Below are positions 3,027-42,284 of a stretch of 64,000 bases of DNA, piece after piece (the stretch's first letter is position 1; each line of letters opens with the position of its first letter). Position numbers and translations under genes: made by a program. Origin of the DNA: a virus; the IMG/VR virus record IMGVR_UViG_3300042453_005121, positions 32,001-96,000 of that record. The stretch is one strand, 5' to 3'. Below the pieces are notes generated by a model. The model did not search any database. It worked only from the letters and a program-made list of their open reading frames with translations, and had not been told where the DNA came from.

Positions 3027-3322
3027 AGTCCTTTCTGGTCTGGTTGGAAGGCGAGGAGAGTCCAGCCCTTTCCGAGCCCCAGCACAAGCAGGGCGAAGCG
3101 AACATGGGCTTGGATTCCATCGTCGAAAGGCGAATGAAGCAGATCATAATGGAATTGGAAGGTTCCGGGAAAGGAACTCAGCAGGAGATACTCGCATCGG
3201 TCCAGAAATACCTCAAGGCGAAAGGAGTGCAGGCCGAGAAACCTGCGTCACAACCTCCTCAGGACGACGCTCAAGGTGCCCAACAGGACGGAATGCAGAT
3301 GCAGCCCGCGATGGCCAATTAG
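3023..3322 (+). CDS. Hypothetical tagged protein
   Basis: MKSFLVWLEGEE; ATGA overlap. Confidence 0.7.
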   Translation: MKSFLVWLEGEESPALSEPQHKQGEANMGLDSIVERRMKQIIMELEGSGKGTQQEILASVQKYLKAKGVQAEKPASQPPQDDAQGAQQDGMQMQPAMAN

Positions 3323-3636
3323 ACATATTTCTCCCTGAACAAGTTCATCTTTATCGTCTCGACGTAGTCGTAAAGACACGTGTCTCCTTCGGACTTTATC
3401 TCCCTGAGCCTGTACACTGCCACCTTCTGACTGCCGTCTATCTGGTCATTGGTGAGGTATTCTATGAGTTTCTCGCCGAGTGTCTCGCGGGATATCTCGT
3501 TTCCGTCCACAATGCGCTTGAGTATTAGAGGCGGCTCCTCACCGTTTATCTCTATGACCCTGTCGAGGCATCCGTCCGCAGGGCCTCCGATGAGAAGGGC
3601 GTCCCATTCATATCCGTATCCTTCTTCCTTTTTCAT
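3319..3636 (-). CDS. Hypothetical protein
   Basis: IGGPADG motif typical of small phage proteins; ATGA overlap with upstream gene. Confidence 0.65.
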   Translation of the reverse strand: MKKEEGYGYEWDALLIGGPADGCLDRVIEINGEEPPLILKRIVDGNEISRETLGEKLIEYLTNDQIDGSQKVAVYRLREIKSEGDTCLYDYVETIKMNLFREKYV

Positions 3637-3956
3637 ATCCAGCCCTCTATCGTTGCCCTCTTTATTTCGTCTACAGCGACTCTCCTGCCAAGTGCTTCGC
3701 TTACTGCCTTGACAAATTCCTTCTCTATTTTTTGTTGTTCTTGGATGAGGTAATTGACGCCTTTTTGTTTGGCCTCCAGAAATCTGACCACATCTATCTT
3801 GAAGTCCAGTTTTCTGCCATCCAAGAAAACGGCTTTCTCCACGCCGTCTTTTTTGGGGTCTGGTCCCAAGGGACGCATTTTGACCTCAAATTTGTGCTTG
3901 AAATTACCGTCTCGGCCAATGGGCGGGACATCTGTTTGTATTTCTCTGTTGGTCAT
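3633..3956 (-). CDS. Hypothetical protein
   Basis: Clean ORF translationally coupled to the next gene. Confidence 0.6.
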   Translation of the reverse strand: MTNREIQTDVPPIGRDGNFKHKFEVKMRPLGPDPKKDGVEKAVFLDGRKLDFKIDVVRFLEAKQKGVNYLIQEQQKIEKEFVKAVSEALGRRVAVDEIKRATIEGWI

Positions 3957-5092: not shown

Positions 5093-5515
5093 ATGGCGGG
5101 CGCCGGTATATTCTTCACCGACGGAAAGAAGGTGCTTCTTCTGAAGCGCGGAGGCGAAGAACGCAACAAGGGAACGTGGGGACTTCCCGGCGGTGGTGTG
5201 GAAGAAGGAGAATCTGCCATTCAGGCGGCTCGCAGGGAGTCCGTGGAGGAATGCGGCCGTGTACAGGGCAGGCGATTCGGCAGCCTCGTGGAAAAGGACG
5301 ACGACCACGAGTGGACGACATTCTTCTTCAGAATCAAAAAGCCATTCAAGTGTAAACTGAGCGACGAACACACCGATTGGAAATGGTTTGATCTAGACGA
5401 TCTTCATAATTTGAATCTGCACCCTAAGTTCAAAAAGAATATGGAGAGGCACCTTTCTTTTCTCAAGAAAAGAAAGTCTTTCAGCGAGTGGCTGGAGATC
5501 CGGGAATCTTGTTGA
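5093..5515 (+). CDS. NUDIX hydrolase
   Basis: Nudix box WGLPGGGVEEGESAIQAARRESVEECG; LSDEH..W.W. Confidence 0.9.
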   Translation: MAGAGIFFTDGKKVLLLKRGGEERNKGTWGLPGGGVEEGESAIQAARRESVEECGRVQGRRFGSLVEKDDDHEWTTFFFRIKKPFKCKLSDEHTDWKWFDLDDLHNLNLHPKFKKNMERHLSFLKKRKSFSEWLEIRESC

Positions 5516-6242
5516 TCATATATCCATTTTCAATAACGAAATCTTGGGTGCGTCGTATGCTCTGTGGAGTGCCCATGTCGCTCCAGAATCCCTTGACCAC
5601 GGATACGTCCATTGATTTTGACTCGCAGTAATGCTGGTTGACGTCCGTGATTTCAAGTTCTCCGCGCTTTGAAGGAATTAATTTTTCGGCTATATCGTAG
5701 ACCTTTGGGTGATACAAATAAAGGCCGGTGACTGCCATGTTGCTTTTGGGATTCTTCGGCTTTTCTTCTATCTCGCCCTCGTGGTACACGCCGAACCGCT
5801 CGGGATCATCAACTTCCTTGAGGAATATACGCGCGCTGTTGGGACATGAACCTTTGAAGAAGGTCATTTCGTCCGAGAAGGAATCCTCGTAGAAGTTGTC
5901 GCCCAATATGACCGCGAACGGATCATCGCCCGTGAAGCCTTGAGCAAGCTTGAGTGCCGATGCTATGCCGAGTTCCACCCGCATGACGTCTTGTATCTTG
6001 TAGGTGAATCTGGCTCCGAAGGCGTGTCCGTCGCCGAGATTGTGTATTATGGGTCCCGAGTGGTCACGCGAAGATATGATGAGTATTTCTTCTATCCCGC
6101 TGCTGACGAGCGTGTTTATAGGATAGAAGATCATGGGCAACGCTCCCTGATCCGTGTATATCGGCAACAGGTGCTTGTTGGTCACGAAGGTGGCGGGTTT
6201 CATCCTGCTGCCGGTGCCACCGGCGAGTATAACGCCCTTCAT
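5481..6242 (-). CDS. rmlA: Glucose-1-phosphate thymidylyltransferase (RmlA/RfbA family)
   Basis: GVILAGGTGSR, NKHLLPIY, LGDN, EEKP, SKRGELEITD, WSDMGT. Confidence 0.9.
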   Translation of the reverse strand: MKGVILAGGTGSRMKPATFVTNKHLLPIYTDQGALPMIFYPINTLVSSGIEEILIISSRDHSGPIIHNLGDGHAFGARFTYKIQDVMRVELGIASALKLAQGFTGDDPFAVILGDNFYEDSFSDEMTFFKGSCPNSARIFLKEVDDPERFGVYHEGEIEEKPKNPKSNMAVTGLYLYHPKVYDIAEKLIPSKRGELEITDVNQHYCESKSMDVSVVKGFWSDMGTPQSIRRTQDFVIENGYMINKIPGSPATR

Positions 6243-6255
6243 GCACGCCCCCTGC

Positions 6256-6705
6256 TCAGTCCCTGATGATCGTGATTCCCGCCATCGGATCTTCCGTGAA
6301 CAATTTTTCCTTGTCTTCCGTCTCGTCGCTCGGCCCCGTCTCGTTCAAGGGCAGGTCTTCGCGCACCACGGAGTGTTCCACCTTTCCCGAACGGGTAATC
6401 TGCTCGGGCTGGTCTAGTATCAGTTTCTCTGGCATTTTTTGCTCCTTGTTATCCGGGGCGGTGAGGGCCTCAACCAACACGGCCTCCTTTGGAACCATGG
6501 AGAGGAAATAACTGTCGCCCTCCCAAGTTCCATTGGGACCCACCCACCTTTTGCCGTCCCTTGAGGGCTTCGGCAATTCTAGGGAGGCCACAGAGCTTCT
6601 GTTTCTGAACCTGTAGAGCCCCGTTCCTTCCTGGTGGTATTCGAGTATCCTCTTGTTTTGTTCGGCCCTCTCGTACCTGTTGGCTTTTTTCCCCGCCTTC
6701 TTCAT
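6256..6705 (-). CDS. Hypothetical protein
   Basis: Intact ORF co-oriented with rmlA. Confidence 0.65.
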   Translation of the reverse strand: MKKAGKKANRYERAEQNKRILEYHQEGTGLYRFRNRSSVASLELPKPSRDGKRWVGPNGTWEGDSYFLSMVPKEAVLVEALTAPDNKEQKMPEKLILDQPEQITRSGKVEHSVVREDLPLNETGPSDETEDKEKLFTEDPMAGITIIRD

Positions 6706-6762
6706 GCCTTGGCCTTTCTTTGGGAATGCATTCTATATTAAACAGAGTATCTAGGTCTCAAT

Positions 6763-7107
6763 ATGTCAAAAATTAAACCAAAAAAGTGGACCGATGTGTA
6801 TCCGGCGGGGTCGGAGGAGGGCGACGAGGAATCAAGGTTCTTCAAGAGCCTTGCGAGGCACCCCAAGTATGAATGGAAGAGTACGGCTGCCTTGGCCAAG
6901 GAAAGCGGACTCACTCAGAAGAGGGTGGAGGAGATAATGGCCAAGTACATCAAGTTGAACATGGTGTTCCAGAATCCAAACAACGAGGAACACTGGGGCT
7001 ACTGGGAGCGTGTGCCTCACATGCTCCCCGACTCCTACGTGAGCGTTTCCGACGAGGATAAACAAAAAAGGATATCTCGGGCTTCCGGCAAGTCGGGATC
7101 AGAGTGA
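6763..7107 (+). CDS. Hypothetical protein, possible winged HTH
   Basis: WKSTAALAKESGLTQKRVEEIM. Confidence 0.6.
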   Translation: MSKIKPKKWTDVYPAGSEEGDEESRFFKSLARHPKYEWKSTAALAKESGLTQKRVEEIMAKYIKLNMVFQNPNNEEHWGYWERVPHMLPDSYVSVSDEDKQKRISRASGKSGSE

Positions 7108-9426
7108 CATCGGCGTTTTTTTGAGGTGATCGCAAACGAACTTGAGCCCGTCGTTCAGCCACTGCCAAGTCGTAGAGGTACTTATTTCTCCTCCTCCCTG
7201 ATCTGGATTGCCCGGTCCGTACATCTTCGTCGTGATGGACTTTATGATGTCGTGCATTTGTTTCAAACTGACCTCTCTGTCGCTGATTGAACTGAGGTAT
7301 TGAAAGCACTTGTCGCCTCTGTTCCTTGTTGACATCCCAAAGAACCTTTCCAATGACTCATCGCTTATTTCTCCGGAATTCATGATGGCAGTTCCAGTGT
7401 TTGCGTCGTATGGAAGTTGCAGCTTCACGCAAACTGCCAAGGCCTGCCACAATGGTGCTGGCCTGCCTCCTGGTCCTGGTTTTTTTCTCATCCCCATTTG
7501 AGAGCCCTTAGCATTCAAGGCTCTGATTGCGTCGTAGATATATCTCATCATCTGCCTTTTTCTTTCCTTGTCCAACGCTATGGCCGTGGGTGTCGTGCTC
7601 GTGCTCGCTCCCGAGAAAATTCCTGGTCTTTCCTGGACATCGTCGTCTGACCTGGCCTTGGCCAGCGCGTCCAATCCCTGACTGAGGTCGTCCCCGCCGG
7701 ATTCCTTGTCGCCGGACTGACCTGCGAACAAAAGTTTGGCTCGACCCTTGCTGGCGTAGTGGTCCCTGTACGTCTCGAGGGTTTGGATTATGTCATTCGG
7801 ATTTAACGTTATACCTATCTGGGGAGCGGCCTTGATCACGACCTGCTTCATGAGTTCAAGTCTGTATTTGTCTTCTCCGGAGGCCGTGATGCCTTCCTCT
7901 GTGCCCTTGCGCACCGCGTCCAGATATTTCATATGAAATCTGAGCGACGAGTACGGGTCGGCGATCATGCGCTTCAATTCATTCTCGTCAACCTTCATCA
8001 TTTCGGCCACTTCAGACTCGGGTCGTCCTCTTTCCAACATTGATTTGGCGTAGAGTGCTCGCTTGGCCGCGTTTATGTCCTTGTTCATCCTGCTGTTGAC
8101 TTCGTTTCTTCGATTGACTTCGTCCCTTCTGTGAGCGGTGGGAGATCTTAGTTCTTGGGCGGCCGTTCTTGCGAGGCCGAATATTCTTTGTCTCCAAGAC
8201 TTGAGCATGGATTCCGAGTCATCGTCTATAGCCCCCCATGATTTGGCCTTGCCTTCCAGCGTCACCTTTCTTCCGGCGAGCATCTGCAGCATTCGGGTCG
8301 TGAATTCATTCGCGACTTCCTCGGGATCGGAGAAATACATGTGTCCTTGCACTCCCTTCTTGGCTCCCCTGAAGGAAGAGGTGTTATTCGCAACCACGCT
8401 GCGGAAGGCTCCTCTGAAGGTGTCCGGTGCTGATTCTTCCAGGCCAGATAAATCCTTTATCAGTTTTTCCTTGGCAGAATCCACCTTTTCGGAGGGTCTC
8501 ATCTTGGTTCTTCCCCAACGATCAACAATTGCATTGCCTTCTTTGTCCGTTACGGGCACGATTAGATCGGCGGATTTTATGTCGGATGGAATGTCGTTGT
8601 CTTGCTCTTTCAGAGCGTTGTTGATGGCCTTTATGGTTTCCGATTCCCTTTTTTCGTCCTTCTTGATTCTTGCTAGATTTTCCGGCCTGAGGTAGCCGAG
8701 ACGGACCAATATCTCTTCCGCCTCCTCTAGTATTTTCTTCTTTTTTTCGTCGTCTTCTTCGTCGTCGTCGTACGAAAGGAAGGACTCGGAAACTGGGCTG
8801 ATCTTTTTGTAGTCGGACAAGAGTTCTTTGAGCCTATCTATTTCCCTCTTGCGGTCCATCATCGCGTGCCAACGCACCCAGAGGGCGTTGTTCTTCAGTC
8901 TCGTGGCGAATTCTCTTTGCGAATCGGACATGCGGTATTCGCCTTTCTTCTTGCGCTCCTCTTCTTCTTCCGCTGCGGCGCGGGCCTTTTCGGCATCTTC
9001 CTTTTCCTTCTGTATGGCTTCGTCGTCTATTTCGGTAGGCTTGGCATCTTCATCCCCGCCGGCGAACGGGTCGGGCATCTCCACGACCTCGGCCTTGCCG
9101 CACTTGGGACACACGTTCTGGTCGTCCTTCTCGTCAAATTTTCCGACGTAGGGGCAGTGCTCGCATTCCCTTATGTCGGCGTCCGATACTTTTTCCTGGC
9201 ACTGGGGGCATTCCAGGCCCTCCCGTTCCTTGTCCTCGAATCGTCCGTGGTAGCCGCACTTGTGGCAATCAAGTTCGTGGTCCTTGTAGTAGTTTTCACC
9301 CACGGCCTCGCAGAATTGCCTGAAAAATTCCTCAAGCACGACCTCGGCGTTCATCTGGGTCTGGACGGGCCTAATTATGTCGTTTATTACGCTCTCAATT
9401 ATCAGCCATTCCTTGAAACTGCTCAT
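7099..9426 (-). CDS. Large tagged protein with two zinc ribbons and sigma-factor-like regions 2 and 4
   Basis: MSSFKEWLIIES start with AGGAG SD; CHKC..CPQC and CEHC..CPKC; DPEEVANEFTTRM...WRQRIFGLARTAAQELR; C-terminal EISTSTTWQWLNDGLKFVCDHL. The sigma assignment is tentative. Confidence 0.6.
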   Translation of the reverse strand: MSSFKEWLIIESVINDIIRPVQTQMNAEVVLEEFFRQFCEAVGENYYKDHELDCHKCGYHGRFEDKEREGLECPQCQEKVSDADIRECEHCPYVGKFDEKDDQNVCPKCGKAEVVEMPDPFAGGDEDAKPTEIDDEAIQKEKEDAEKARAAAEEEEERKKKGEYRMSDSQREFATRLKNNALWVRWHAMMDRKREIDRLKELLSDYKKISPVSESFLSYDDDEEDDEKKKKILEEAEEILVRLGYLRPENLARIKKDEKRESETIKAINNALKEQDNDIPSDIKSADLIVPVTDKEGNAIVDRWGRTKMRPSEKVDSAKEKLIKDLSGLEESAPDTFRGAFRSVVANNTSSFRGAKKGVQGHMYFSDPEEVANEFTTRMLQMLAGRKVTLEGKAKSWGAIDDDSESMLKSWRQRIFGLARTAAQELRSPTAHRRDEVNRRNEVNSRMNKDINAAKRALYAKSMLERGRPESEVAEMMKVDENELKRMIADPYSSLRFHMKYLDAVRKGTEEGITASGEDKYRLELMKQVVIKAAPQIGITLNPNDIIQTLETYRDHYASKGRAKLLFAGQSGDKESGGDDLSQGLDALAKARSDDDVQERPGIFSGASTSTTPTAIALDKERKRQMMRYIYDAIRALNAKGSQMGMRKKPGPGGRPAPLWQALAVCVKLQLPYDANTGTAIMNSGEISDESLERFFGMSTRNRGDKCFQYLSSISDREVSLKQMHDIIKSITTKMYGPGNPDQGGGEISTSTTWQWLNDGLKFVCDHLKKTPMSL

Positions 9427-9523
9427 CAAATTAACTCCTGTATTGCGGCACAAGGCTATATATGGCGACGAAAATTATTATGCGGATGCTATATAAGACG
9501 AGGTCTCATTTTTGGAGAAAGAT

Positions 9524-9751
9524 ATGAAGTCATTTTTGAACTGGGTTAAGGAAGAGAAACTTGAGCTTCCCGTGATCGACGCGCCGGAGGCCGAGAAGAC
9601 CGTTGAAGAGAAGACCAAGAGGACGGGGCTGAGTGCGAATTATCCGCCAGCCTATGTCTCGAGTCAGTATCCTCACAAGTACTTTAATCCGAGCAAGGCG
9701 ACCGCCGACCTTGACATACAGAACATCAAGAAGAAGGACGTGAATTCCTGA
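9524..9751 (+). CDS. Small tagged hypothetical protein
   Basis: MKSFLNWVKEE; GGAG SD. Confidence 0.7.
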   Translation: MKSFLNWVKEEKLELPVIDAPEAEKTVEEKTKRTGLSANYPPAYVSSQYPHKYFNPSKATADLDIQNIKKKDVNS

Positions 9752-10764: not shown

Positions 10765-12051
<1,287 letters not shown>

Positions 12052-18754: not shown

Positions 18755-21598
18755 TCACACCGGCCAGTACTCCTCCACCACCGCCAGATAATCCTTGAAC
18801 GATTCTGACATAGCTTCTTCCGCTCCGGGAATTTGCGCAGCCACTGCCGCCTGCATTTCCTTGTCTATCTTCTTGATTTCCTTCTGGGCGTCTACGATCT
18901 TCTTGAGTGCCTCGGGATCGTGTTCGGCATCGTGATAATGCTTCCTGTATCTTTGTATTATCGCGGCGATCTCTCTTTTCTTCTGAACCCTGTCAAACAA
19001 ATCCCTGTCCAAGCCAGAGCCCACGATGTACTGTATGTTGACGGGATGGTTCGTGTTGATCCTGTATATCCTGCCTTCGCTCTGCTCGGCTGACTCCGGC
19101 GTCCAATCAAAGTCGTTGATGACCATGTGTTGGGCCGCGTTCGGGAAGTCTATGCCCGTTCCGCCCATCTTCATGCTCATGACCAGAACCTTGGCGTCGG
19201 GATCGTTTGTGAATCTGGACTTGACCTTTTCCCTGTCGGCCTTCTTTGTGTCGGACAGGTAAGTGAGAACGTGGAACTTCGGGTCTATCTTTTTGAGTGC
19301 CGCATCGATCTTCTCGGCCAGTTGACGGCCCGCCGCGATGAAATTGCTGAACACGACTGTCTTGCTGGCTGCGGGTGGTTTGTCCTTTCCCTCGTTGACG
19401 ATCCTTATGACCTCTGCGGTCGTCTTGTCGGTTTTTAATTGCGCCACGGCTTCCCTTGCCGCTATGAGACGGGATATGGGAAGACTCGGGTCTTTGTATC
19501 CCGATATCCTGTCGGAGAATATGCCTTGGAACTTGTCTTGATCTATGGAGGCTCCTTGATTTGAAACCGACAAGTTCGGCATGTCCCTGATGTCTTCCTT
19601 GCTTCTTCTCACGTATACGCCCGAAAGGTTGAGCCACTTGTTGAGCCTTTCTGCGGCGCGTATCTCATCCTCGTCGCTGTCGCTCTTCTGCAGCGATCCT
19701 CCGTATCCGCCTCCCACCATGCCTGCAAAGTCCCTCTTGAACTTGGCCTCGCTGACCCTTCCGAGGTGATGGCCTGTCATGGCGAGTTGATTCCTGACGT
19801 CCATGGGCTTGTTGGACGATACGGTGGCGGAGGCTCCCCACTTGGTCGGTATTTTCTCAACGACCTTGGCGATGTTCTGGCTTCTCTTGCTCTTGCTGTG
19901 CTTCACCTTGTGCAGTTCGTCGAAGATCACGATTCCGAATCCGGTGCCGGAAAGCTTGGAGACGACTTGGTCCAGGTTCTTTCCGCTGGAGAAGTTTTCG
20001 TAGTACAAGACCGTCCATTTGCCGGGATTGAGCGGGTCCGTGGAGATTTTGGATTTTTCTTCATCTCCTACGACGTTCGTTATTTCTTCCACCCACTGCT
20101 TCTGGGTGGCTTTGAGTGTGACGACGAGAACGGGCTTGCCGTCCCTCTGCATCCTGAGAGCAGCGGCGCTGACAAGTTGGATCGTCTTGCCCACGCCAGT
20201 TGCGTCACCGAGTATCGCGTGGTCGCGTCCGTAGAGGAAGGCTATGCCCTTCTTCTGCGCGTCGTACAATTCAAATTTGCTTTCAGGAAGTTTGTCCTCG
20301 ATCTTGGACGCGAATTCTTCGTCGTCGTCGTGCTTTCCTTCCCACACGGATTCCTGAAGTCTTCCGTCCTTGAGCTTAGCCCGGACTATGTCTCTCAACT
20401 CGGACACCTCGTATCCGAACCTCTTGAGCAGTCTTCCGAAATTGACGTACTGCTTGTAGTTTCCCGAAACCGTGTAGTAGAAATCCGCCCTGTTCCATTC
20501 GTAGTCCGGGAATGTGTATTGTATTGACTCCTTGATGAATTCCTTCCTTCCCTGATCCAAGGCCCTGTAGTTGACCCTTATCCTCAACTTGTCCCCGCTG
20601 TCGTCGGTGAATTTGATCACGTCGGAGGTGGATCGCGGGGTTTCGGTGGGCGTGGTCTTTTCTCTGGCGAATTTCTCAAGCGATGTCGTGTCGTATCCTT
20701 GGCGGATGAGTTCGTCGGCCACGGACCGGAAATTGGCCGAGTCGGTGTCTATGAGGAACCTTGAAGGCCCCGGCTTATAGGATATTCCCTTGGGAGAAAG
20801 ACCCTTGCTCTTCATTGCTTCAAAAGTGGCCTTGCTTCGTTCGTACGGAACGTTGAACCTGATGGCTATCTTTGTGCCGAAGTCTGTCTTCTCCTCACCT
20901 ATGATTTCTATTTCATCAGCTTTGGAGGGAGTCGCCTGCTGCGAAGCCGGGAGAGATGGTTCGGAACCAGATTCGTACTCCACATCCATGCCTTTTGATT
21001 TGATGACCTGTGCGATTTGGGGGAGTATGCCCTTGTGCACCCTGTAGGTGTGCATGCCGGTCCTGTCCTGGGAGAATTTCTTGAACCGAGGGAGTTTCAT
21101 GTTGCCATAGGCGTCCTGCGAACGTTCGGCACCCTCGGCCTCGAGAGCGGCGTCCACGATCCTGTTTATCTGGATCGTCATGGACCTGTCCACCCCGTGG
21201 GGGATGTAGACCTTCACCTTGCCGTACTCAAGCGGCTGTTTGTCGTACACAACGGCCTTGTCGCCGGACGAACCCGCACGAACGGCCTCCATGTCCTTGG
21301 CAACCAGAGAACTGATCTGCTGGTAATTGGGGACTTGGGTATTGCGGTAGTGGGACAGCATCCGGAGCATGAGGTCGGCAGCCCTTACGGGTACCGATAT
21401 GCTGTCGATGTGTCCGTTGGCGAGAAGGGATTGGTAGGAGGTCCAGTCCCCCTTGTTGAATCCGTAATCGTTGAATTCCTTGGGGACTCCCCTAGAGGCC
21501 ATGTCCCTCATCGCGGCCTGAAGGGCCTTGATGCCCGGCCCGGTGACCGTGGACTCAACCGACTCCCTTATCCCCATCCAATCAGAAAAACCCATCAT
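18755..21598 (-). CDS. SNF2-family (HARP/SMARCAL1-like) helicase/ATPase with tagged N-terminus
   Basis: LYDAQ, GDATGVGKT, DELH, SAT, GGTGIDF, QSEGRIYRI; MMGFSDWMGIRES; TAGATA-N5-ATG. Confidence 0.88.
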   Translation of the reverse strand: MMGFSDWMGIRESVESTVTGPGIKALQAAMRDMASRGVPKEFNDYGFNKGDWTSYQSLLANGHIDSISVPVRAADLMLRMLSHYRNTQVPNYQQISSLVAKDMEAVRAGSSGDKAVVYDKQPLEYGKVKVYIPHGVDRSMTIQINRIVDAALEAEGAERSQDAYGNMKLPRFKKFSQDRTGMHTYRVHKGILPQIAQVIKSKGMDVEYESGSEPSLPASQQATPSKADEIEIIGEEKTDFGTKIAIRFNVPYERSKATFEAMKSKGLSPKGISYKPGPSRFLIDTDSANFRSVADELIRQGYDTTSLEKFAREKTTPTETPRSTSDVIKFTDDSGDKLRIRVNYRALDQGRKEFIKESIQYTFPDYEWNRADFYYTVSGNYKQYVNFGRLLKRFGYEVSELRDIVRAKLKDGRLQESVWEGKHDDDEEFASKIEDKLPESKFELYDAQKKGIAFLYGRDHAILGDATGVGKTIQLVSAAALRMQRDGKPVLVVTLKATQKQWVEEITNVVGDEEKSKISTDPLNPGKWTVLYYENFSSGKNLDQVVSKLSGTGFGIVIFDELHKVKHSKSKRSQNIAKVVEKIPTKWGASATVSSNKPMDVRNQLAMTGHHLGRVSEAKFKRDFAGMVGGGYGGSLQKSDSDEDEIRAAERLNKWLNLSGVYVRRSKEDIRDMPNLSVSNQGASIDQDKFQGIFSDRISGYKDPSLPISRLIAAREAVAQLKTDKTTAEVIRIVNEGKDKPPAASKTVVFSNFIAAGRQLAEKIDAALKKIDPKFHVLTYLSDTKKADREKVKSRFTNDPDAKVLVMSMKMGGTGIDFPNAAQHMVINDFDWTPESAEQSEGRIYRINTNHPVNIQYIVGSGLDRDLFDRVQKKREIAAIIQRYRKHYHDAEHDPEALKKIVDAQKEIKKIDKEMQAAVAAQIPGAEEAMSESFKDYLAVVEEYWPV

Positions 21599-22939: not shown

Positions 22940-23446
22940 TCAACCCACCTTCCCGGGTTGGTTGTACGTTATTTCGTACTCGCGCTTGGCGATCCTGTAG
23001 TATTTGCCGTCTTCCTCGCGAACGAGGTAATCTCCCGGCTTCAAAACCATGCTTTCTCCCCAAGGCGCCAAAAAATTAACCACGGCATTGCCCGTGTAAG
23101 CGGCGACGTTCCTCGGACTCTGCTCCGGGTGCACAGGGTCTCCCATCTGGCCAACGTACATCTTCTGGAACTTGGCGGGCTTGATCGCATATTTCTCTCT
23201 GCTCGGGCCGCTAATGATGATATCGTTCTGTTCGGCCACGTTCTGCGTCTCCTTACCGTCGCTGGTCATTGTGGTCACGGTCATTCGTTCGGGAGCGACC
23301 GCATAACTCATTGCCGGCATGTCGGTACTGTATTGGACGAAGTTGTAAACTAGTTTTTTCTTTGTGGTGGGCAGGAAATTAAGACCGGCGGCGATCTGGT
23401 TGATGTCAATCTGGTTCTCAAGCATCCATTCGTTGAATTTTTTCAT
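22940..23446 (-). CDS. PGDYG-like protein with tagged N-terminus
   Basis: MKKFNEWMLEN; APWGE..PGDYLV, YRIAKREYEITY. Confidence 0.65.
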   Translation of the reverse strand: MKKFNEWMLENQIDINQIAAGLNFLPTTKKKLVYNFVQYSTDMPAMSYAVAPERMTVTTMTSDGKETQNVAEQNDIIISGPSREKYAIKPAKFQKMYVGQMGDPVHPEQSPRNVAAYTGNAVVNFLAPWGESMVLKPGDYLVREEDGKYYRIAKREYEITYNQPGKVG

Positions 23447-25362
23447 GTTTTGATCTCCCATCGTGTCTTGCCGCAGTCCCATATGCGGGACAAACCGCGC
23501 TGGTTGGCCCACTCAAGTTCGGTCATGCCCTGCGGGCATTCGGAGTTCTTCTTGCTCTGGCTCTGCTTGCTGATTCTGCGCTTAGGATTCTTCATGTTCA
23601 CATAGTAATAATCGGGAGGCAGGTCCTCGGTCCTCTTGAAGCCGAGATTCTCGTACACCTTTCCGTCGCTGTACCTGTTATCGCTCCATGATACGACGTT
23701 TTTGATATCGTTTTCACGACACCACTCTAGGCACCTCTTGAACAGCTTGCCAGATCCTCCCACTATCTGAAGACCTTTTTTGAAGCAAAGCCTTGTGAGT
23801 ACGACCGAATACTTGTCCTTCTTCCTGTGGTGTCTGCCGAGGTCCACCACTCCCACCAATTCCTCCCCGTGGAAGAGGCCGAAGCAGACGCGGCTGAGTT
23901 TGTTTCCCCCTTGAAGGTGGTGAAGGTCGCAGAATTCACTCATTTCCTTCTTGGTGATTTCCCTAACCTCGCACTTCCTAGCTTGGATTCTTTGCGAGAA
24001 TATGCCAAGCTTGGAAAGGATGAGGCTCTTGCATACTTCTTGCTTCTGGTTCCACTCGTCGTCAAATATGGTAATGAGTTGTATTTCCTTCTCCCTGCAT
24101 TTTTTCCATTTGTCGTGATGGTAAGAACGAGTCCGTGGTTGAGGCGAGTTCTCATTGTGCCAGTAGAGGCCGCAGTATTCTAATGCTAATTTTTGATCTT
24201 GATCGTACAGATCAAGTTCTTTTCCCTCAAGAACTGAGACGTCTGGATTGAAATTAAACCCAGAGGAATTGAGCCATGATTTAATTTTACTCTGAGTCTT
24301 GCCATATTTCCATGCTGGGTATGGCGTGCCATATTTTTCTATCTTTGTTTCTATTGACTTTTTTCTTATGTCTTCGGAAGAAAAAGTATGTTCATGTCCG
24401 TATCTTTCAAGATTAGTTCGCCTTATCTTTTCTTGAATTTCAGGACTTTTAAGAGTGCATTCAACTCCATATTTCTTTAGATTGGTTATTTTTATTTTTT
24501 CTTTGGTCTCAGGTAGCGACAGATTGCATTCAACTCCGTACCTATCCACATTTGTTTTTATGGCCTTTTGTCTAACCAAAGGACTTTTTGAAGGATTTTC
24601 ATATCCATATTTTTTGAGGTTTGTTTTTTTTGTTTTTTCTTTGATGACTATAGACTTGCTTGGATGTTCAACTCCGTACCTATCAACATTTGTAGATTTA
24701 ATTTTTTCCTTTACATGTTCTGATTTGAACAAATTATCAACACCGTATTTTTGAAGAACTGTGCGATTAATTTTTTCTCTAATTTGCTTAGAAGATGCCG
24801 CTTGTTCTGATCCATATTTGTCAAGATTTGTTCTTTTTATTCTTTGCTTGACTTCTTGAGATGATAGAAAATCTTCTACACCATACCTTTCAATATTTGT
24901 ATTTCTTACTTTTTTCTTGAACTTATCAAGTTGTATTGGGAATGAAGACCCATGTCTTTTAAGGCTCGTGTCTTGAGCCTTTTTGAGTATCAATTTGTTT
25001 TGGAGTGCATGTTCTACTCCATGATTCTTAATGCACGTGGCTCTGCTTTTGGCTCTTATTTCAGAATTTTGTTGAGCGTATTCAACGCCATATTTTTCAA
25101 GGTTTGAATTCTTAATTTTTTTCTTAACATCTTCTCTTTGAAATGGATTTTCAACTCCATATTTAAGCAAATTTATTTCTGCAAGTTTTTTCTTGGAACA
25201 AACATCTTTAGAGCAAGAATCTTTTTGTATTGTTTTTCTACTTTTCTGTATTTTGCTTTTGAGTTTTTGAACTTCTTGTCCACAATAATCGCATTTCACG
25301 GGAACGCGGGCTTTCCACTTTATCTTTTCGTACGGTACATCCAATTTTTCGTGCAGTATCAT
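23443..25362 (-). CDS. Putative homing endonuclease: KYGVE-repeat region plus PD-(D/E)xK nuclease and GNAT-like C-terminus
   Basis: About 13 TNLxKYGVExP repeats, ELDLY..ALEYCGLYWH, LITIFDDEW, SWSDNRYS; AT-rich N-terminal half. Confidence 0.75.
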   Translation of the reverse strand: MILHEKLDVPYEKIKWKARVPVKCDYCGQEVQKLKSKIQKSRKTIQKDSCSKDVCSKKKLAEINLLKYGVENPFQREDVKKKIKNSNLEKYGVEYAQQNSEIRAKSRATCIKNHGVEHALQNKLILKKAQDTSLKRHGSSFPIQLDKFKKKVRNTNIERYGVEDFLSSQEVKQRIKRTNLDKYGSEQAASSKQIREKINRTVLQKYGVDNLFKSEHVKEKIKSTNVDRYGVEHPSKSIVIKEKTKKTNLKKYGYENPSKSPLVRQKAIKTNVDRYGVECNLSLPETKEKIKITNLKKYGVECTLKSPEIQEKIRRTNLERYGHEHTFSSEDIRKKSIETKIEKYGTPYPAWKYGKTQSKIKSWLNSSGFNFNPDVSVLEGKELDLYDQDQKLALEYCGLYWHNENSPQPRTRSYHHDKWKKCREKEIQLITIFDDEWNQKQEVCKSLILSKLGIFSQRIQARKCEVREITKKEMSEFCDLHHLQGGNKLSRVCFGLFHGEELVGVVDLGRHHRKKDKYSVVLTRLCFKKGLQIVGGSGKLFKRCLEWCRENDIKNVVSWSDNRYSDGKVYENLGFKRTEDLPPDYYYVNMKNPKRRISKQSQSKKNSECPQGMTELEWANQRGLSRIWDCGKTRWEIKT

Positions 25363-25389
25363 GAGACAATTATACCAAATACAAAGTTT

Positions 25390-26283
25390 TCAATCAAGAC
25401 TGATGTAGGGTAGATCACCAAACTTGTAAATCAAGTCCTCAAACCATTTTTGCCTGTCTTCTCTGGCCTCTTGAAGAAGCGTTGATCCGTCAAGAGCCAC
25501 AGAGCCACCAGCTCCTGGCACGCTCTGGTATTTGCTTCTTATTCTGCCCAAAATTTCTTTCGCATACGTAAGCGAACCCTCTTGAATTGCTTGGGTAACT
25601 TCACCCCAGTCCTTATTTCTCTGCAAATAATGAACCATGACTTTTTGTATCCTGTAGGGAACGGGATAGAGTTTGATTGAATTAAGTCCGCCTAGGAACT
25701 CCCAACCGCCCAAAGCCGAACTCATTCTACTGTACATTTGTTCATACTGCTTGTAAAGGGTCCATTCTCCTGCGCGGCCCCATATCGGCTGAATCGGATC
25801 TATTAATCCACCTTGAATTGAATTATAGGAACCACCTGGGTAAAAATATTCTATGGGGATGCTACCTCCAAGATCGCTAGCCTGGAATGCGTAACTTCCT
25901 ACTTCTTTGTAGAACACATTTCTTATTATTCCAACTTCATCCGGCATCTGATACACGCTCTTTCCGGGGACCGAGTCAAACACGTAGTACTGGAAGTATT
26001 CCCTGCCAGCATAGTCCTCAAATATCTTCATTGCCTGGTCTACGGCGAAGTCCAGGTTCTGGGCATCCAGTTCCAATTTGACCACTGGGGCTCCGAGCAT
26101 GTGGAGGCAGTAGTCCTTTATTTGTTCCCTTACCTTTTCTCTTTGCCTTCTGGGACCCAGTTTGCTTTTATTGAGGGGGTCTGCGTGTCCAAGTTCGCTG
26201 CATGTGCTGTTGCACTGCACGCTCGCCATGTTGGTCATGCTTGGTCTGTTGACCGCCAAGGTATTGTTTCCGTTACAACTCAT
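25390..26283 (-). CDS. Neck protein (T4 gp13-like)
   Basis: IKDYCLHMLGAPVVKLELD..D.A...F.DY; LGRIRSKY..PG.GG.V.LDG. Confidence 0.85.
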   Translation of the reverse strand: MSCNGNNTLAVNRPSMTNMASVQCNSTCSELGHADPLNKSKLGPRRQREKVREQIKDYCLHMLGAPVVKLELDAQNLDFAVDQAMKIFEDYAGREYFQYYVFDSVPGKSVYQMPDEVGIIRNVFYKEVGSYAFQASDLGGSIPIEYFYPGGSYNSIQGGLIDPIQPIWGRAGEWTLYKQYEQMYSRMSSALGGWEFLGGLNSIKLYPVPYRIQKVMVHYLQRNKDWGEVTQAIQEGSLTYAKEILGRIRSKYQSVPGAGGSVALDGSTLLQEAREDRQKWFEDLIYKFGDLPYISLD

Positions 26284-29972: not shown

Positions 29973-31133
29973 TCATCCAGTCTTGAACTTTTCCTTTCTC
30001 AAGTCATCCATCAGGTCGCGATCGGACATGATTTCCTGCGAGTCCTTGAGCGACGCTGTTATGTAGTGCACAGTTCCCCCGTACCCTCCTTTTTCCGAGT
30101 ACTTCTTTGCGTCGCCGAAATCTGCATCGGGGCGTCTCAGTCTCACCAGTTCCTTGAGTTTATAAAAGTTGTCCTCCAAGTCGTCGGGATATGTGCTGCT
30201 GATCGTGACGGATGATCTGGAGAATCTCACGACGCCCCTAGATGTTTTCTTTGGTTCGGGTTTGAATTCGTTGGGCTTTGCATCCAAGCTCTTGTCTTCT
30301 TCTATGTCGTCGAATGCCTCTCCGAAGAGTCTTTCCATTGCTCTCTTGTCGGCGAAGTGGAATCCAGGCTTGTTGTGGGCCTTCAATGCGGCGATTACGT
30401 CGTGGAGTCTGGATTCGGAAAGGCCGTATTTCTTCGCATTCTTTTCCATCCATTCCGAAAGGTTTTGATTATCAGAAGGGTTGGCCGAATGTCCTTGGCC
30501 GAACTTCTTGAGTGAAGATATCTTGTCCACCATTCTCTGTATGTTCGGCGGAAGTGGAACGGATCTACCGAGCGGGAATCTTCTCGCCGGGTGATACTTT
30601 CCTGAGGTGAACGCGTCGTGCTTGTCCTTTATGACTAGGTCTTGCTGGTCTTGTGGAGTGGTGGGGTGGAACTGAGCACTTGTGATGTCTATGTAATGTC
30701 CCTCGGCCTCCACCCACCAGTGTTGTTGGGGGCTCTTCATGTTGTGGCCCTTTGGTGGGTTGGCGTCGTTGAGTCCGATCGCATACCCGGCGTGGTATCC
30801 CGGCTCTGGGGTTCCGTACCATCCGGCAACCTTTCTTGCCTTGAACCCTTTTTCCCTCAGGAATTTTGCTAGGTCGTCCGCCGCGTTAACGCACGTGAAG
30901 GATAGCGGATGGTGCTTGAATGGAACCACTCCCAAACTCTTGTCGTAATCCGTTCCGAGTTCGTCCTCAACGTGTTTTGGATTGTTTGGATCAAAGTGCA
31001 TGTTCTTTGGGCGCGTGATGTAATAGCACTTTTGGGCTCCGGGCTTTTTGACGAGATATTCTTTTACTGCGGCTTCAAGACGTTCCTTCATGCTCGGGGA
31101 AGGGTCGGCGAGCCACTCCATGAATGTCTTCAT
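29973..31133 (-). CDS. Tagged transglutaminase/papain-like (Cys-His-Asp) protein
   Basis: MKTFMEWL; TCVNAADDL, QHWWVE, YIDITSAQF. Confidence 0.7.
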   Translation of the reverse strand: MKTFMEWLADPSPSMKERLEAAVKEYLVKKPGAQKCYYITRPKNMHFDPNNPKHVEDELGTDYDKSLGVVPFKHHPLSFTCVNAADDLAKFLREKGFKARKVAGWYGTPEPGYHAGYAIGLNDANPPKGHNMKSPQQHWWVEAEGHYIDITSAQFHPTTPQDQQDLVIKDKHDAFTSGKYHPARRFPLGRSVPLPPNIQRMVDKISSLKKFGQGHSANPSDNQNLSEWMEKNAKKYGLSESRLHDVIAALKAHNKPGFHFADKRAMERLFGEAFDDIEEDKSLDAKPNEFKPEPKKTSRGVVRFSRSSVTISSTYPDDLEDNFYKLKELVRLRRPDADFGDAKKYSEKGGYGGTVHYITASLKDSQEIMSDRDLMDDLRKEKFKTG

Positions 31134-32629
31134 TTCTCACCTACTTCACTCTTGAGTGATACCTTGGCATTGTCCAGGAACATCTCCTTGTCAAAGCCGG
31201 AAAACCCTCCGTATGGGGATTCAAACTTGAAGCTTTCCTTGTTTTGTAAATAGTCCTCCAAATCCAACTCCTCGGTCTTGGATATGAAGTCCGAAAGGTC
31301 CTGGCTGTGAATCTGGAGTCTGTACGGGTGGTTCTCCATGTCCACCCAGAATCCATTTTCATCGCTGCTGTCCATGGCCTTCTTGAACGATTCCCACGCG
31401 TCCTTCTCGGAGCCGGATACGTACGCGTCTTTGTATGCCGACGAAAGGGCTTCGCGCACCGAATTACTCGCATCCCAAGCAGCCTCTGCGTCATCTACCT
31501 CGTGGCCCTCCTCCTTGGCGACCCTGATCATCGTATCTTCCAGTTCATCATCGGCTTTATGGGACATGTCGTTCCAACTTATGTCCCAACTTATGTTATC
31601 GGCAAAGTCCATGTCGCCGCCGAACCAGTGACCGAAACCTCCCATGCCTTCCTTGTCGTCTGTAGAAACTATGTTCCCCAAATCCTCAAGGTCGTACTGC
31701 TTCAGCGTCACCGTGTCTCCTTCAAGGCTCATGTCTTTCGGGACGAGGCTTAGATGGCTGGCTATCTCATATTTTCTGCCTGTTTGCAGCATGTGCTTTA
31801 CCATATTGCCTATGTTTGGCTTTATCGCCTCTATGATCTTGCGGTCGGTTTCTTGGAGGTCTTTGAGGCTGAAGTTCCTTTCCGGGGCATATCCTCCTCC
31901 CTTGATCACGTGTATGGACGGGTGCTTTAGAAGCTCCATGATCGCCGGATGGTATCTCTTGGATGGCTTGCTGTTGCCTCTGCCCTTCATTTCGCCGAGA
32001 ATTCCGTCGTTGACTATGAACGTGAGATGAGCCTTGCCTTCTGGGTCTCTCAATGAAAGTATGTTGTCGCCTTCTATCGCGCCGGAATTACCGCAGTGGC
32101 CCATGGCTTTGGCTTCTTGCGAACAGTATCCCCTTCCGAGTGAAGCCCATTTCCATCCTTGCCACGGACCTTTGAGTTCTATGAAAGTTTCATATTCATC
32201 CGAGGGCATCTCTGCCTTCCTCGCGGCGATGTCCTCGTGCCACATGTCCGAATCGGCCTTAAGTTGCATTGTCGTGTAGGATGCGTTGTTGAGTTTGCTC
32301 TTGGTCTGCGGCCATGTTCCGAATATGAAGTCCCCGAACCTGTTCATTAACTGGTTTGCGTGATTGGCTACGAGCGTATCCATCCTGACCTTGTCGGAGA
32401 TCGGTGCACCTTTTCTCGGAAGAGACGATTTCATTTCCTCTAGGGTGTTCTTTGTGAGAAAATTAACGAGATAATCCCCTTCCGGCCCTAGTTTCTTGAA
32501 TTGCTCCATCTTTTGCAGATGATGCCTGACTGCATTTTTGATGTCGGGAATATTGGGATCATTTTTGGCCTTCAATAATTGGGCCACGGTCGCGTTCTCG
32601 TGGAACAGCCACTCCATGAATGTCTTCAT
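31130..32629 (-). CDS. Tagged PcfJ-like domain protein
   Basis: MKTFMEWLFHEN; EAKAMGHCG, ILSLRD, GEMKGRGN; TAAATA-N5-ATG. Confidence 0.6.
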   Translation of the reverse strand: MKTFMEWLFHENATVAQLLKAKNDPNIPDIKNAVRHHLQKMEQFKKLGPEGDYLVNFLTKNTLEEMKSSLPRKGAPISDKVRMDTLVANHANQLMNRFGDFIFGTWPQTKSKLNNASYTTMQLKADSDMWHEDIAARKAEMPSDEYETFIELKGPWQGWKWASLGRGYCSQEAKAMGHCGNSGAIEGDNILSLRDPEGKAHLTFIVNDGILGEMKGRGNSKPSKRYHPAIMELLKHPSIHVIKGGGYAPERNFSLKDLQETDRKIIEAIKPNIGNMVKHMLQTGRKYEIASHLSLVPKDMSLEGDTVTLKQYDLEDLGNIVSTDDKEGMGGFGHWFGGDMDFADNISWDISWNDMSHKADDELEDTMIRVAKEEGHEVDDAEAAWDASNSVREALSSAYKDAYVSGSEKDAWESFKKAMDSSDENGFWVDMENHPYRLQIHSQDLSDFISKTEELDLEDYLQNKESFKFESPYGGFSGFDKEMFLDNAKVSLKSEVGEK

Positions 32630-32660
32630 GGGGATATTTAGATGGATACTAGTTTATTTC

Positions 32661-40295: not shown

Positions 40296-40850
40296 ATGCC
40301 GATTAACATGGGTTTGGGTAGGATAGGTCAGCCGGACATCATCCATAAGAGGAAGTTTCGGTGGACCTTCGAAGTGACCAGAAGTGGTCGTGGTGGCGTG
40401 CCGACAAGTTTCGTCAAAATGGCGGCCAGGCCAAATCTCAGCATAGAAGAAACCGAAATCAATTTCCTCAACGGTAAGACCTATATTCCCGGTAAGGGCA
40501 CATGGGAGACCATCACGGTCACTTATTACGACGTGACAGGAAATGACAACGTTCCTCTTTGGAGCTGGATCGCCGACGTTTATGACTACACCAATCCGGT
40601 TACGCTGACGCAGAGTTCAAAGAGAGAGTGCTATACCGGAAGCGGCATATGCACCCTGTATGATGGTTGCGGCAATCCCCTTGAAAAATGGGAGTTGCAG
40701 GACTGCTGGCCCCAGGCGGTCAACTTCGGAGAACTGGATTACGCTTCGTCCGAGGAAGTGACCATAGAGGTCACGATACGCTACTCGGGCGTCAGGTACC
40801 AGAACCTTTGCGGCAACAATCCTGATTCGCAGTGCTGCGGTTGCAGTTGA
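40296..40850 (+). CDS. Tail tube protein (gp19-like) 1
   Basis: KRKFRW, ARP, GK..W..ITVT.YD, LYDGCG, WPQ.VNFGELDY. Confidence 0.88.
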   Translation: MPINMGLGRIGQPDIIHKRKFRWTFEVTRSGRGGVPTSFVKMAARPNLSIEETEINFLNGKTYIPGKGTWETITVTYYDVTGNDNVPLWSWIADVYDYTNPVTLTQSSKRECYTGSGICTLYDGCGNPLEKWELQDCWPQAVNFGELDYASSEEVTIEVTIRYSGVRYQNLCGNNPDSQCCGCS

Positions 40851-40933: not shown

Positions 40934-41458
40934 ATGATAATGGGAAGAAACATGGGTCTCGGCAAGATAGGATCAGACAGCATTTGTATGATGCGCAAGT
41001 TCCGTTGGCTATTCAAGATAGACGGAGTGTGCGATGACGGGACCAGTGCTCTACCTCCAGACAAGGGGGCCAGACCCAGCCTTAATTTCAAAGAGATAGA
41101 GGCACAACACCTCAATGAGACGATTTATTTCGCTGGAAAACCCGACTGGAAACCGGTGACATTGACGTTGTTTGACCTTAAGGGAAACGGCAACCCAATA
41201 TTCAAATGGCTCAAGGAGCAGTACGAGCCTTGCCAAGACAAAGGCACTTGGAAACGCCCGGCTGGAACTGCTTGGAAAAAGAAAGCAAGACTTGAGATGT
41301 ACGACGGATGCGGAAACGTTATGGAACGATGGATATTTATGAACGTGTGGCCCAATAACATAGAATGGGGCGATCTGGACATGAGCAACAACGATTACGT
41401 GACCGTGGAACTGACGCTCCGGTACGACCGGGCTTGGACCGAGGATTGCTCCGGTTGA
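40934..41458 (+). CDS. Tail tube protein (gp19-like) 2
   Basis: RKFRW, ARP, GKPDW, YDGCG, WP..IEWGDLD, LRYDRA. Confidence 0.85.
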   Translation: MIMGRNMGLGKIGSDSICMMRKFRWLFKIDGVCDDGTSALPPDKGARPSLNFKEIEAQHLNETIYFAGKPDWKPVTLTLFDLKGNGNPIFKWLKEQYEPCQDKGTWKRPAGTAWKKKARLEMYDGCGNVMERWIFMNVWPNNIEWGDLDMSNNDYVTVELTLRYDRAWTEDCSG

Positions 41459-41753: not shown

Positions 41754-42284
41754 TTAATTTTGATTGTCAAACATGGGCTTTCCATTCTTGAATGAAGAAT
41801 TACCCTCAAGCATTTGTATATGGTTTAGGTACTTCTTTTTTAGTTCATTGTAATTCCTTGCAGTCCTATAGAGTTGCCTGAAATGATTCAATATACACGT
41901 GGTCATGTAGTTGAATGCCTTGCCCTTTCGGGAATCAAATCGGTCTATTTTGTCAAAGCATATCATCACACCTTCCTGAACGGCGTCATCCGTGTCTATG
42001 AGTTGAAATTTGGCATACCTGACTATGTTCTCCGAAAGGGTGAAGAAGGCCACCGCCAGCTTGCTTTTTGATTCGTCGTGGTCTTGGGACGCAAGGGCGA
42101 GGAGAGACTCTTTTTCTTTCAATCTTGATTTGTCATTGGACGCGGGCACTTTTCTTATTTTCTTGCGAGATATGGTTTCGGATATCTCGCTCATCAAAAT
42201 ATCAAGCCTCACCTTGCTTTTCTTTGAATCTTGGAACTGATTTATTATTTTCTCAAAAACCTTGTTGTTCAGATACTCGTTCAC
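41754..42284 (-). CDS. Late-transcription sigma factor (T4 gp55-like)
   Basis: YLNNK, DDAVQEGVMICF..IDRFD...KAFNYMT....HF; region 2 only. Confidence 0.85.
   Translation of the reverse strand: MNEYLNNKVFEKIINQFQDSKKSKVRLDILMSEISETISRKKIRKVPASNDKSRLKEKESLLALASQDHDESKSKLAVAFFTLSENIVRYAKFQLIDTDDAVQEGVMICFDKIDRFDSRKGKAFNYMTTCILNHFRQLYRTARNYNELKKKYLNHIQMLEGNSSFKNGKPMFDNQN

Follow-up and report, generated by a model that had tools for sequence, protein, structure and literature searches.

A large tagged protein of a T4-type phage with predicted sigma-factor-like domains

In this work, we have analysed a 775-aa protein, P0001, encoded in a 64,000-nucleotide stretch of viral DNA (the window), which corresponds to bases 32001-96000 of the 150,762-bp IMG/VR record IMGVR_UViG_3300042453_005121. 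Our results suggest that this protein is probably sigma-like: its predicted structure contains a domain resembling sigma region 2 and, after it, one resembling sigma region 4, and its N-terminus carries a short peptide resembling the capsid targeting sequence (CTS) of phage T4. We tentatively propose that P0001 is a very divergent sigma70-like factor that is loaded into the head, ejected, and used to direct the host core polymerase to phage promoters; taken as a whole, we regard this chain of events as quite possible rather than probable.

An earlier note, made from the sequence of the window, had described in this open reading frame a tag, two CxxC-x14/15-CPxC ribbons and charged linkers, and every one of these elements was found. 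The gene and its parts are laid out as follows (AF2, AlphaFold2; pLDDT, predicted local distance difference test; HTH, helix-turn-helix).

7099..9426 (-): whole gene of P0001, 775 codons plus stop, with full-length relatives
9435..9439 (-): Shine-Dalgarno sequence AGGAG, 8 nt before the ATG
9394..9426 (-): capsid-targeting-like tag, residues 1-11, MSSFKEWLIIE, with aromatics at 4 and 7, Leu8 and Glu11
9298..9417 (-): single long N-terminal helix, residues 4-43, beginning inside the tag (AF2, pLDDT 73-85)
9199..9267 (-): zinc ribbon 1, C54xxC57-x15-C73PQC76, lacking in three close relatives, P0002-P0004
9100..9165 (-): zinc ribbon 2, C88xxC91-x14-C106PKC109, retained in P0001-P0007 only
8932..9093 (-): acidic and Lys-rich linker, residues 112-165, partly helical (sequence and AF2)
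8137..8931 (-): predicted sigma-2-like domain, residues 166-430, with an insert at about 285-365
7603..8136 (-): middle region, residues 431-608, with a conserved sPS...in.D, helical at 493-558 and with a disordered loop at 561-610
7957..8055 (-): HTH-like insert, residues 458-490, GRPESEVAEMMKVDENELKRMI, in the P0001-P0008 subfamily only, weakly like sigma region 3.1
7102..7602 (-): predicted sigma-4-like domain, residues 609-775, with an insert at 669-720

The start of the gene is the ATG at 9426, with AGGAG at a spacing of 8 nt, and not the TTG at 9453, which would add 9 residues, because all relatives begin at MxxFKEWL. Both zinc ribbons are modelled by AF2 as small beta ribbons, with weak, sub-threshold Pfam zinc-ribbon matches; they are restricted to the closest relatives, and most of the distant ones lack both. 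A second charged (acidic and Lys-rich) linker occupies residues 219-231.

Predicted domains and their possible contact with RNA polymerase

A first AF2 run on 6 sequences reached a pLDDT of 54.7, too poor for use, while the model built on 39 sequences has a mean pLDDT of 80.9, with 354 residues at or above 90. This model was aligned to each of 48,161 PDB representatives, independently of Foldseek. For residues 169-424 the top five of the 48,161 were sigma region-2 domains, and residues 615-775 matched sigma region 4. Each of the two domains thus has sigma domains as its top matches, the targets being almost fully covered at 2.1-2.7 Å and the two domains standing in the order found in sigma factors. 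The nearest named clusters in a language-model comparison were Sigma70_r2 for residues 165-430 (0.87) and Sigma70_r4 for residues 600-775 (0.85), both scores lying under the level at which such scores stand alone. Judged from the model, P0001 is predicted to contain both the sigma-2 domain fold (regions 2.1-2.4) and the sigma-4 domain fold (regions 4.1-4.2, with its HTH). Foldseek against PDB and BFVD returned nothing at E ≤ 0.001, its weak top rows being rich in sigma factors. A fold search of the Atlas gave global matches of low TM score only.

The stretches that the earlier note had assigned by eye to sigma region 2 (366-427) lie inside the predicted sigma-2-like domain, DPEEVANEF... (366-384) and SWRQRIF... 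(410-427) being its final two helices. Similarly, the C-terminus that it had read as region 4.2 falls inside the predicted sigma-4-like domain, in which VSLKQM... and ...TWQWLNDGLKFVCDHL form the helices 721-736 and 750-770; in both cases the agreement is at the level of the fold only. Together with 613-643 and 657-668, these two helices are probably those aligned with sigma region 4, and Cys666, Cys707 and Cys765 are conserved in this domain. The sigma-2-like domain carries the most conserved motifs of the family, LW.RW..R, LGY, A..E.GNDLP, G361, R386 and W397.

The same note had pointed to an internal HTH (469-488). Residues 464-497 do match FliA 111-144 (region 3.1) in BLASTP, weakly (E 0.012, shuffle z 5.3), which is the only pairwise sequence match of the protein to a sigma factor; this segment is an insert limited to the P0001-P0008 subfamily, and therefore it cannot define the family.

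Does the sigma-2-like domain contact RNA polymerase? A complex with the polymerase, which had been suggested as a check of the sigma reading, was predicted for residues 165-430 and the clamp helices of E. coli beta' (residues 225-345), and scored 0.41 against 0.00-0.05 for the controls (n = 3). The runs share at least 62% of contacts, and the pLDDT of the partner is at least 79. The mark used for such complexes is passed by 58 of 80 solved complexes and by 2 of 110 mismatched pairs, and passes at 0.60 or below come from only 7 of the 80 solved complexes and from both mismatched pairs. The prediction with the beta' clamp helices thus weakly supports binding, with E. coli as a stand-in for the host of the phage, and it may reflect likeness rather than binding, since sigma-beta' complexes have been solved many times.

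The tag and the head genes

The phage is a T4-type myovirus. Its portal, gp21-type prohead protease and gp23-type major capsid protein, as recognised with PHROGs, stand in T4 order; the protease matches PF03420 (Peptidase_S77, gp21) with 96 bits. The capsid protein shares 78.6% identity with its counterpart in the nearest GenBank record, LR756511.1 (from an uncultured phage, 595 kb), and about 30% with those of cyanophages and other T4-like phages. CheckV rates the record about 28% complete, so the full genome is probably near half a megabase.

The T4 CTS is MKTYQEFIAE (PMC8442874), of which positions 4 and 7 serve in targeting and positions 8 and 10 in processing by gp21 (PMC9026906). The N-terminal peptide of P0001, MSSFKEWLIIE, follows this pattern, with its aromatics at 4 and 7 (F4 and W7), an aliphatic residue at 8 (L8) and a Glu (E11), and I-I-E/S is a possible protease site (the slash marks the cut). 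The motif F..W[LIVM] starting at residues 2-6 is found in 9 of the 187 predicted proteins of the 150.8-kb record, compared with 0.42 expected (Poisson P 7.5e-10), and looser patterns are found in 14-20 of the 187. Among the roughly 36 full-length representatives of the family, almost every one has an N-terminal F/L-x-x-W/Y-[LIV]-x-x-[E/D], the consensus being MxxFKEWLxx[E/D], and in nearly all members the motif is followed by an acidic residue. The tag is also present on the same orthologues in L010, a relative in which the sigma-like protein is only about 24% identical to P0001. The interval between portal and protease, which in T4 holds the genes of the prohead core, contains two tagged genes, one of which encodes a ParB-like nuclease domain. 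From the T4-CTS-like tag, the gp21-type protease and the T4-type head module we infer that P0001 could be delivered with the virion.

Related peptides occur on other proteins. The closest match to the T4 CTS in the window is in two adjacent paralogous proteins of 386 and 499 aa (29973-31133 (-) and 31130-32629 (-)), both of which start with MKTFMEWL and neither of which has a Pfam or PHROG match. A 428-aa protein (10765-12051 (+)) that starts with MLSYKEYKLLNESL contains an extended stretch of Asp-Glu repeats as well as Lys blocks rich in Cys, and its orthologues in L010 and LR756511.1 have the same start; this could be an internal head or scaffold-like protein. The motif is not strictly N-terminal, because a NUDIX hydrolase (5093-5515 (+)) has it at its C-terminal end (...KRKSFSEWLEIRESC) and an SNF2-type ATPase (18755-21598 (-)) bears tag-like peptides at its two termini (MMGFSDWMGIRE... 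and ...SESFKDYLAVVEE). Outside the window, a 150-aa protein encoded just after the portal gene (G000 3193-3645 (+)) starts with MNLFEWL and has a ParB-like nuclease domain (phrog_1033, 1.3e-10), and is a candidate for a packaged nuclease. A further protein from outside the window, acidic, 598 aa long and without a family match, is encoded in the head module between portal and protease (G000 5789-7585 (+)) and contains a tag-like EEMFSEWLDL internally, near residue 113.

Family, gene neighbourhood and promoters

Five full-length relatives share 42-52% identity with P0001, and an exhaustive profile search found 38 metagenomic representatives (E ≤ 1e-3), to which a second, word-indexed search using the alignment added none. 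No match was obtained when four family members were compared by tblastn with 50,697 GenBank phage records, and IMG/VR held no relative other than the source record itself. Invariant or near-invariant positions of the family are R185, R192, L240, G244, Y245, A271, E274, N277, P280, G361, R386, W397 and C666, Trp397 being invariant across the family. The gene order is conserved among relatives down to 20-24% identity and consists of a divergent small tagged gene, the sigma-like gene, a convergent gene of 111-114 aa, a 149-aa gene, and then a block of NTP-transferase, NUDIX and LAGLIDADG genes. Given this order, the full-length relatives and the 38 representatives, the gene is real.

The exception is LR756511.1, where the 149-aa, 114-aa and small tagged genes are adjacent (486332-487520, L023 8323-9520) with no sigma-like gene between them. 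The family profile found no sigma-like gene in the whole of this 595-kb record, whereas a single-protein search of the same kind recovers the gene in its own genome. The gene is thus widespread in the lineage yet not indispensable.

The neighbours of the gene, the promoter-like boxes and the phage's own late sigma factor are the following.

9524..9751 (+): tagged gene of 75 aa (MKSFLNWVKEE) in divergent orientation, kept next to the sigma-like gene in every relative examined
6763..7107 (+): convergent 114-aa gene, a conserved neighbour, with a 9-nt overlap with the end of the P0001 gene
9456..9464 (-): T4-late-promoter-like A/T box CATATATAG, 30-38 nt upstream of the ATG
32635-32641 (-), and upstream of 36245, 34667 and 18755-21598: examples of the CTAnATA box
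41754-42284 (-): gp55-like late sigma, 176 aa (Sigma70_r2 at 26-28 bits; phrog_234, 'late sigma transcription factor')

The A/T box is kept as ATATATAG in L010, where the flanks have diverged; it is near-palindromic and lies in the spacer common to the divergent gene, and its orientation is ambiguous. The record contains 53 copies of CTAnATA on both strands. At least 18 of the 187 genes have this box on their upstream side at a distance of 11-63 nt, among them several tagged genes and the one that precedes the tail-sheath gene; in the window, CTAAATA by itself shows no enrichment. CTAnATA resembles the late promoter of T4 (TATAAATA) and probably represents the class of late promoters that the gp55-like sigma serves. 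A second class, TAAAAGG, came out of a k-mer search of intergenic DNA and was dropped, its contexts being unrelated. The A/T box, the tag and the head genes would fit late synthesis and head loading of P0001.

The gp55-like gene adjoins the tail-tube genes, which are tandem paralogues (40296-40850 (+) and 40934-41458 (+), phrog_4542) directly after the gene for a 936-aa tail sheath. Beyond the sheath, the window encodes ribonucleotide reductase, SbcC, a subtilisin-like protease, a COOH-NH2 ligase, an Hsp20 and a J-domain protein, and no tRNA genes were found in it. Its only low-GC stretch (37.6%, 24001-26000) holds the gene for a 639-aa homing-endonuclease-like protein (23443-25362 (-); DUF7487, phrog_3339) with a C-terminal Mom/GNAT-like domain.

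Competing explanations and known systems

How would such a protein act? We propose that P0001 would be made late, from the T4-late-like A/T box, that its tag would dock it on the prohead core, and that the gp21-type prohead protease would cut the tag off after Glu11, the protein being kept in the head and ejected along with the DNA. In the new cell, the sigma-2-like domain would bind the beta' clamp helices of the host core RNA polymerase and the sigma-4-like domain would bind the flap and promoter DNA, and the host polymerase would read phage promoters before any phage protein is made. In keeping with this, no RNA polymerase subunit was found in the 150-kb record, which does encode a separate late sigma of the gp55-like kind.

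Several results weigh against this proposal. At the sequence level, Pfam showed no Sigma70_r2, Sigma70_r4 or r4_2 match to P0001 at E ≤ 10, and no Sigma70 family in the 39 family members at E ≤ 0.01; six-frame searches with PF04542 and PF04545 did not match the gene; and no sigma factor was returned by PHROGs and PDB sequence searches of P0001 or by a profile search of PDB sequences with the family. When the family or its parts were compared by hhalign with an alignment of six E. coli sigma factors, the Prob was below 1%, with local registers in the C-terminal part that agree with region 4 though the alignment is non-significant. A set of diverse extracytoplasmic function (ECF) sigma factors was sought for a better profile, and the search gave only near-identical RpoE orthologues, of no use. 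The sigma reading made by eye in the earlier note is borne out at the fold level in the AF2 model, while no sequence or profile method reaches significance. The last helix of P0001, which would be the one that recognises the -35 element, is not particularly basic. The complex prediction passes weakly, and with the E. coli subunit in place of that of the host. The absence of the gene from LR756511.1 counts against an essential role, and therefore the factor is dispensable or replaceable. A phage RNA polymerase may be encoded elsewhere in the genome, the record being only about 28% complete. Finally, the acidic residue of the tag is at 11, one position later than in T4, and about 10% of the proteins are tagged, including the SNF2 ATPase and the J-domain protein, which would make for many cargoes if the tag served in packaging.

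The last of these points bears on where P0001 acts. It could be a sigma-like factor made and used inside the infected cell, unpackaged, for example a middle-gene sigma beside the gp55-like late sigma, and the tag would then have another role, for instance as a degron, as a localisation signal, or as a helix on which a phage chaperone or protease docks. The same fold evidence speaks for this explanation; tagged proteins include enzymes that need no virion role, the subtilisin-like protease, the COOH-NH2 ligase, the Hsp20 and the J-domain protein encoded in the window could use such a handle, and jumbo T4-like phages usually encode unpackaged sigma factors (PMC7824862). We nevertheless consider it somewhat unlikely, since the tag agrees with the T4 CTS at the targeting positions, two tagged genes lie within the head module beside the gp21-type protease, and the acidic residue after the motif in nearly all members is what would be expected of a site for a Glu-specific prohead protease.

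It is improbable that P0001 is unrelated to sigma factors and is a helical internal head or scaffold-like protein, its likeness arising from common helical packing. Such an origin would agree with the failure of every sequence method to see a sigma factor, and with the acidic, partly disordered composition, typical of internal head proteins; but the two domains each choose sigma domains as the top matches among 48,161 chains, with near-full coverage at 2.1-2.7 Å and in the right order, the language-model features independently indicate the same two Pfam families, and the controls of the complex prediction stayed far below the value for the sigma-2-like domain (0.00-0.05 vs 0.41). Least probable, in our opinion, is a head-loaded and ejected decoy or inhibitor that fills the sigma sites of the host core RNA polymerase or titrates host factors, shutting off host transcription as an ejected takeover protein comparable to T4 Alt: the two predicted folds with the weak beta' prediction, the poorly conserved helix 404-426 (region 2.4-like), the non-basic last helix and the absence of the gene from a close relative, usual for accessory takeover genes, would suit it, but both domains kept in sigma order to about 20% identity, the invariant Trp397 and the conserved SPS linker motif exceed the needs of a simple blocker.

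If P0001 is an ejected sigma-like factor, as we tentatively favour, how does it relate to systems already described? The best structural matches are sigma70-family factors, especially two-domain ECF (group 4) sigma factors (such as M. tuberculosis SigC and SigL, E. coli SigmaE and B. subtilis SigW), with which it shares a sigma-2-like domain followed by a sigma-4-like one, and the likeness to the sigma70 family extends to a region 2.2-like D-x-E-E-V-A-N-x-F and W-containing stretches inside the predicted sigma-2-like domain. In contrast to an ECF sigma, P0001 is four times as large, gives no Pfam Sigma70_r2 or r4 signal, and has large inserts in both domains, a middle region of 180 residues, and an N-terminal extension of 165 residues comprising the tag, the zinc ribbons and the acidic linker.

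In phage T4, the internal proteins IPI-III and Alt are loaded by a CTS and trimmed by gp21, and P0001 likewise has an N-terminal peptide of about ten residues with aromatics at 4 and 7, an aliphatic residue at 8 and then a Glu, in a phage with a gp21-type protease and a T4-type head module. T4 Alt is a large ejected protein that acts on the host RNA polymerase (PMC9026906). The present case differs from IPI-III and Alt in having the acidic residue at 11 instead of 10 and in the tag being on about 10% of proteins; the putative cargo would be a specificity subunit, whereas in T4 it is an ADP-ribosyltransferase or a restriction inhibitor.

T4 gp55 and the sigma factors of group 2 jumbo phages are phage-encoded sigma-like factors that redirect the host core RNA polymerase, and a gp55-like gene is also present here. 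P0001 shows no detectable similarity to the gp55-like protein of its own phage, and gp55 corresponds to the sigma-2-like part only. To our knowledge, gp55 is not packaged. Such T4-like (group 2) jumbo phages depend on sigma factors of their own, used together with the host RNA polymerase (PMC7824862). Finally, in the N4- and phiKZ-like phages, virion RNA polymerases are carried in the particle and injected, and early genes are read without new protein synthesis (PMC7598289); these phages inject a whole polymerase, whereas P0001 would supply the host enzyme with no more than a subunit for promoter specificity.

What would this mean for the biology of these phages? It is possible, if rather doubtful, that in a clade of huge T4-type phages a giant sigma factor, unrecognisable by sequence, is packaged in the capsid and injected with the genome, reprogramming the host RNA polymerase at time zero. 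If true, this would be a third strategy, beside the use of host sigma70 (T4) and the injection of a whole polymerase (N4 and phiKZ), it would define a new class of ejected takeover protein, and it would make early transcription in half-megabase phages independent of host sigma factors or host-like promoters, explaining how infection starts. The tag would be a practical marker for the prediction of virion cargo in uncultured T4-type phages. More generally, sigma-like factors may diverge past the reach of Pfam and profile methods yet stay recognisable by their predicted fold, and therefore phage genomes scored as lacking sigma factors may have them.

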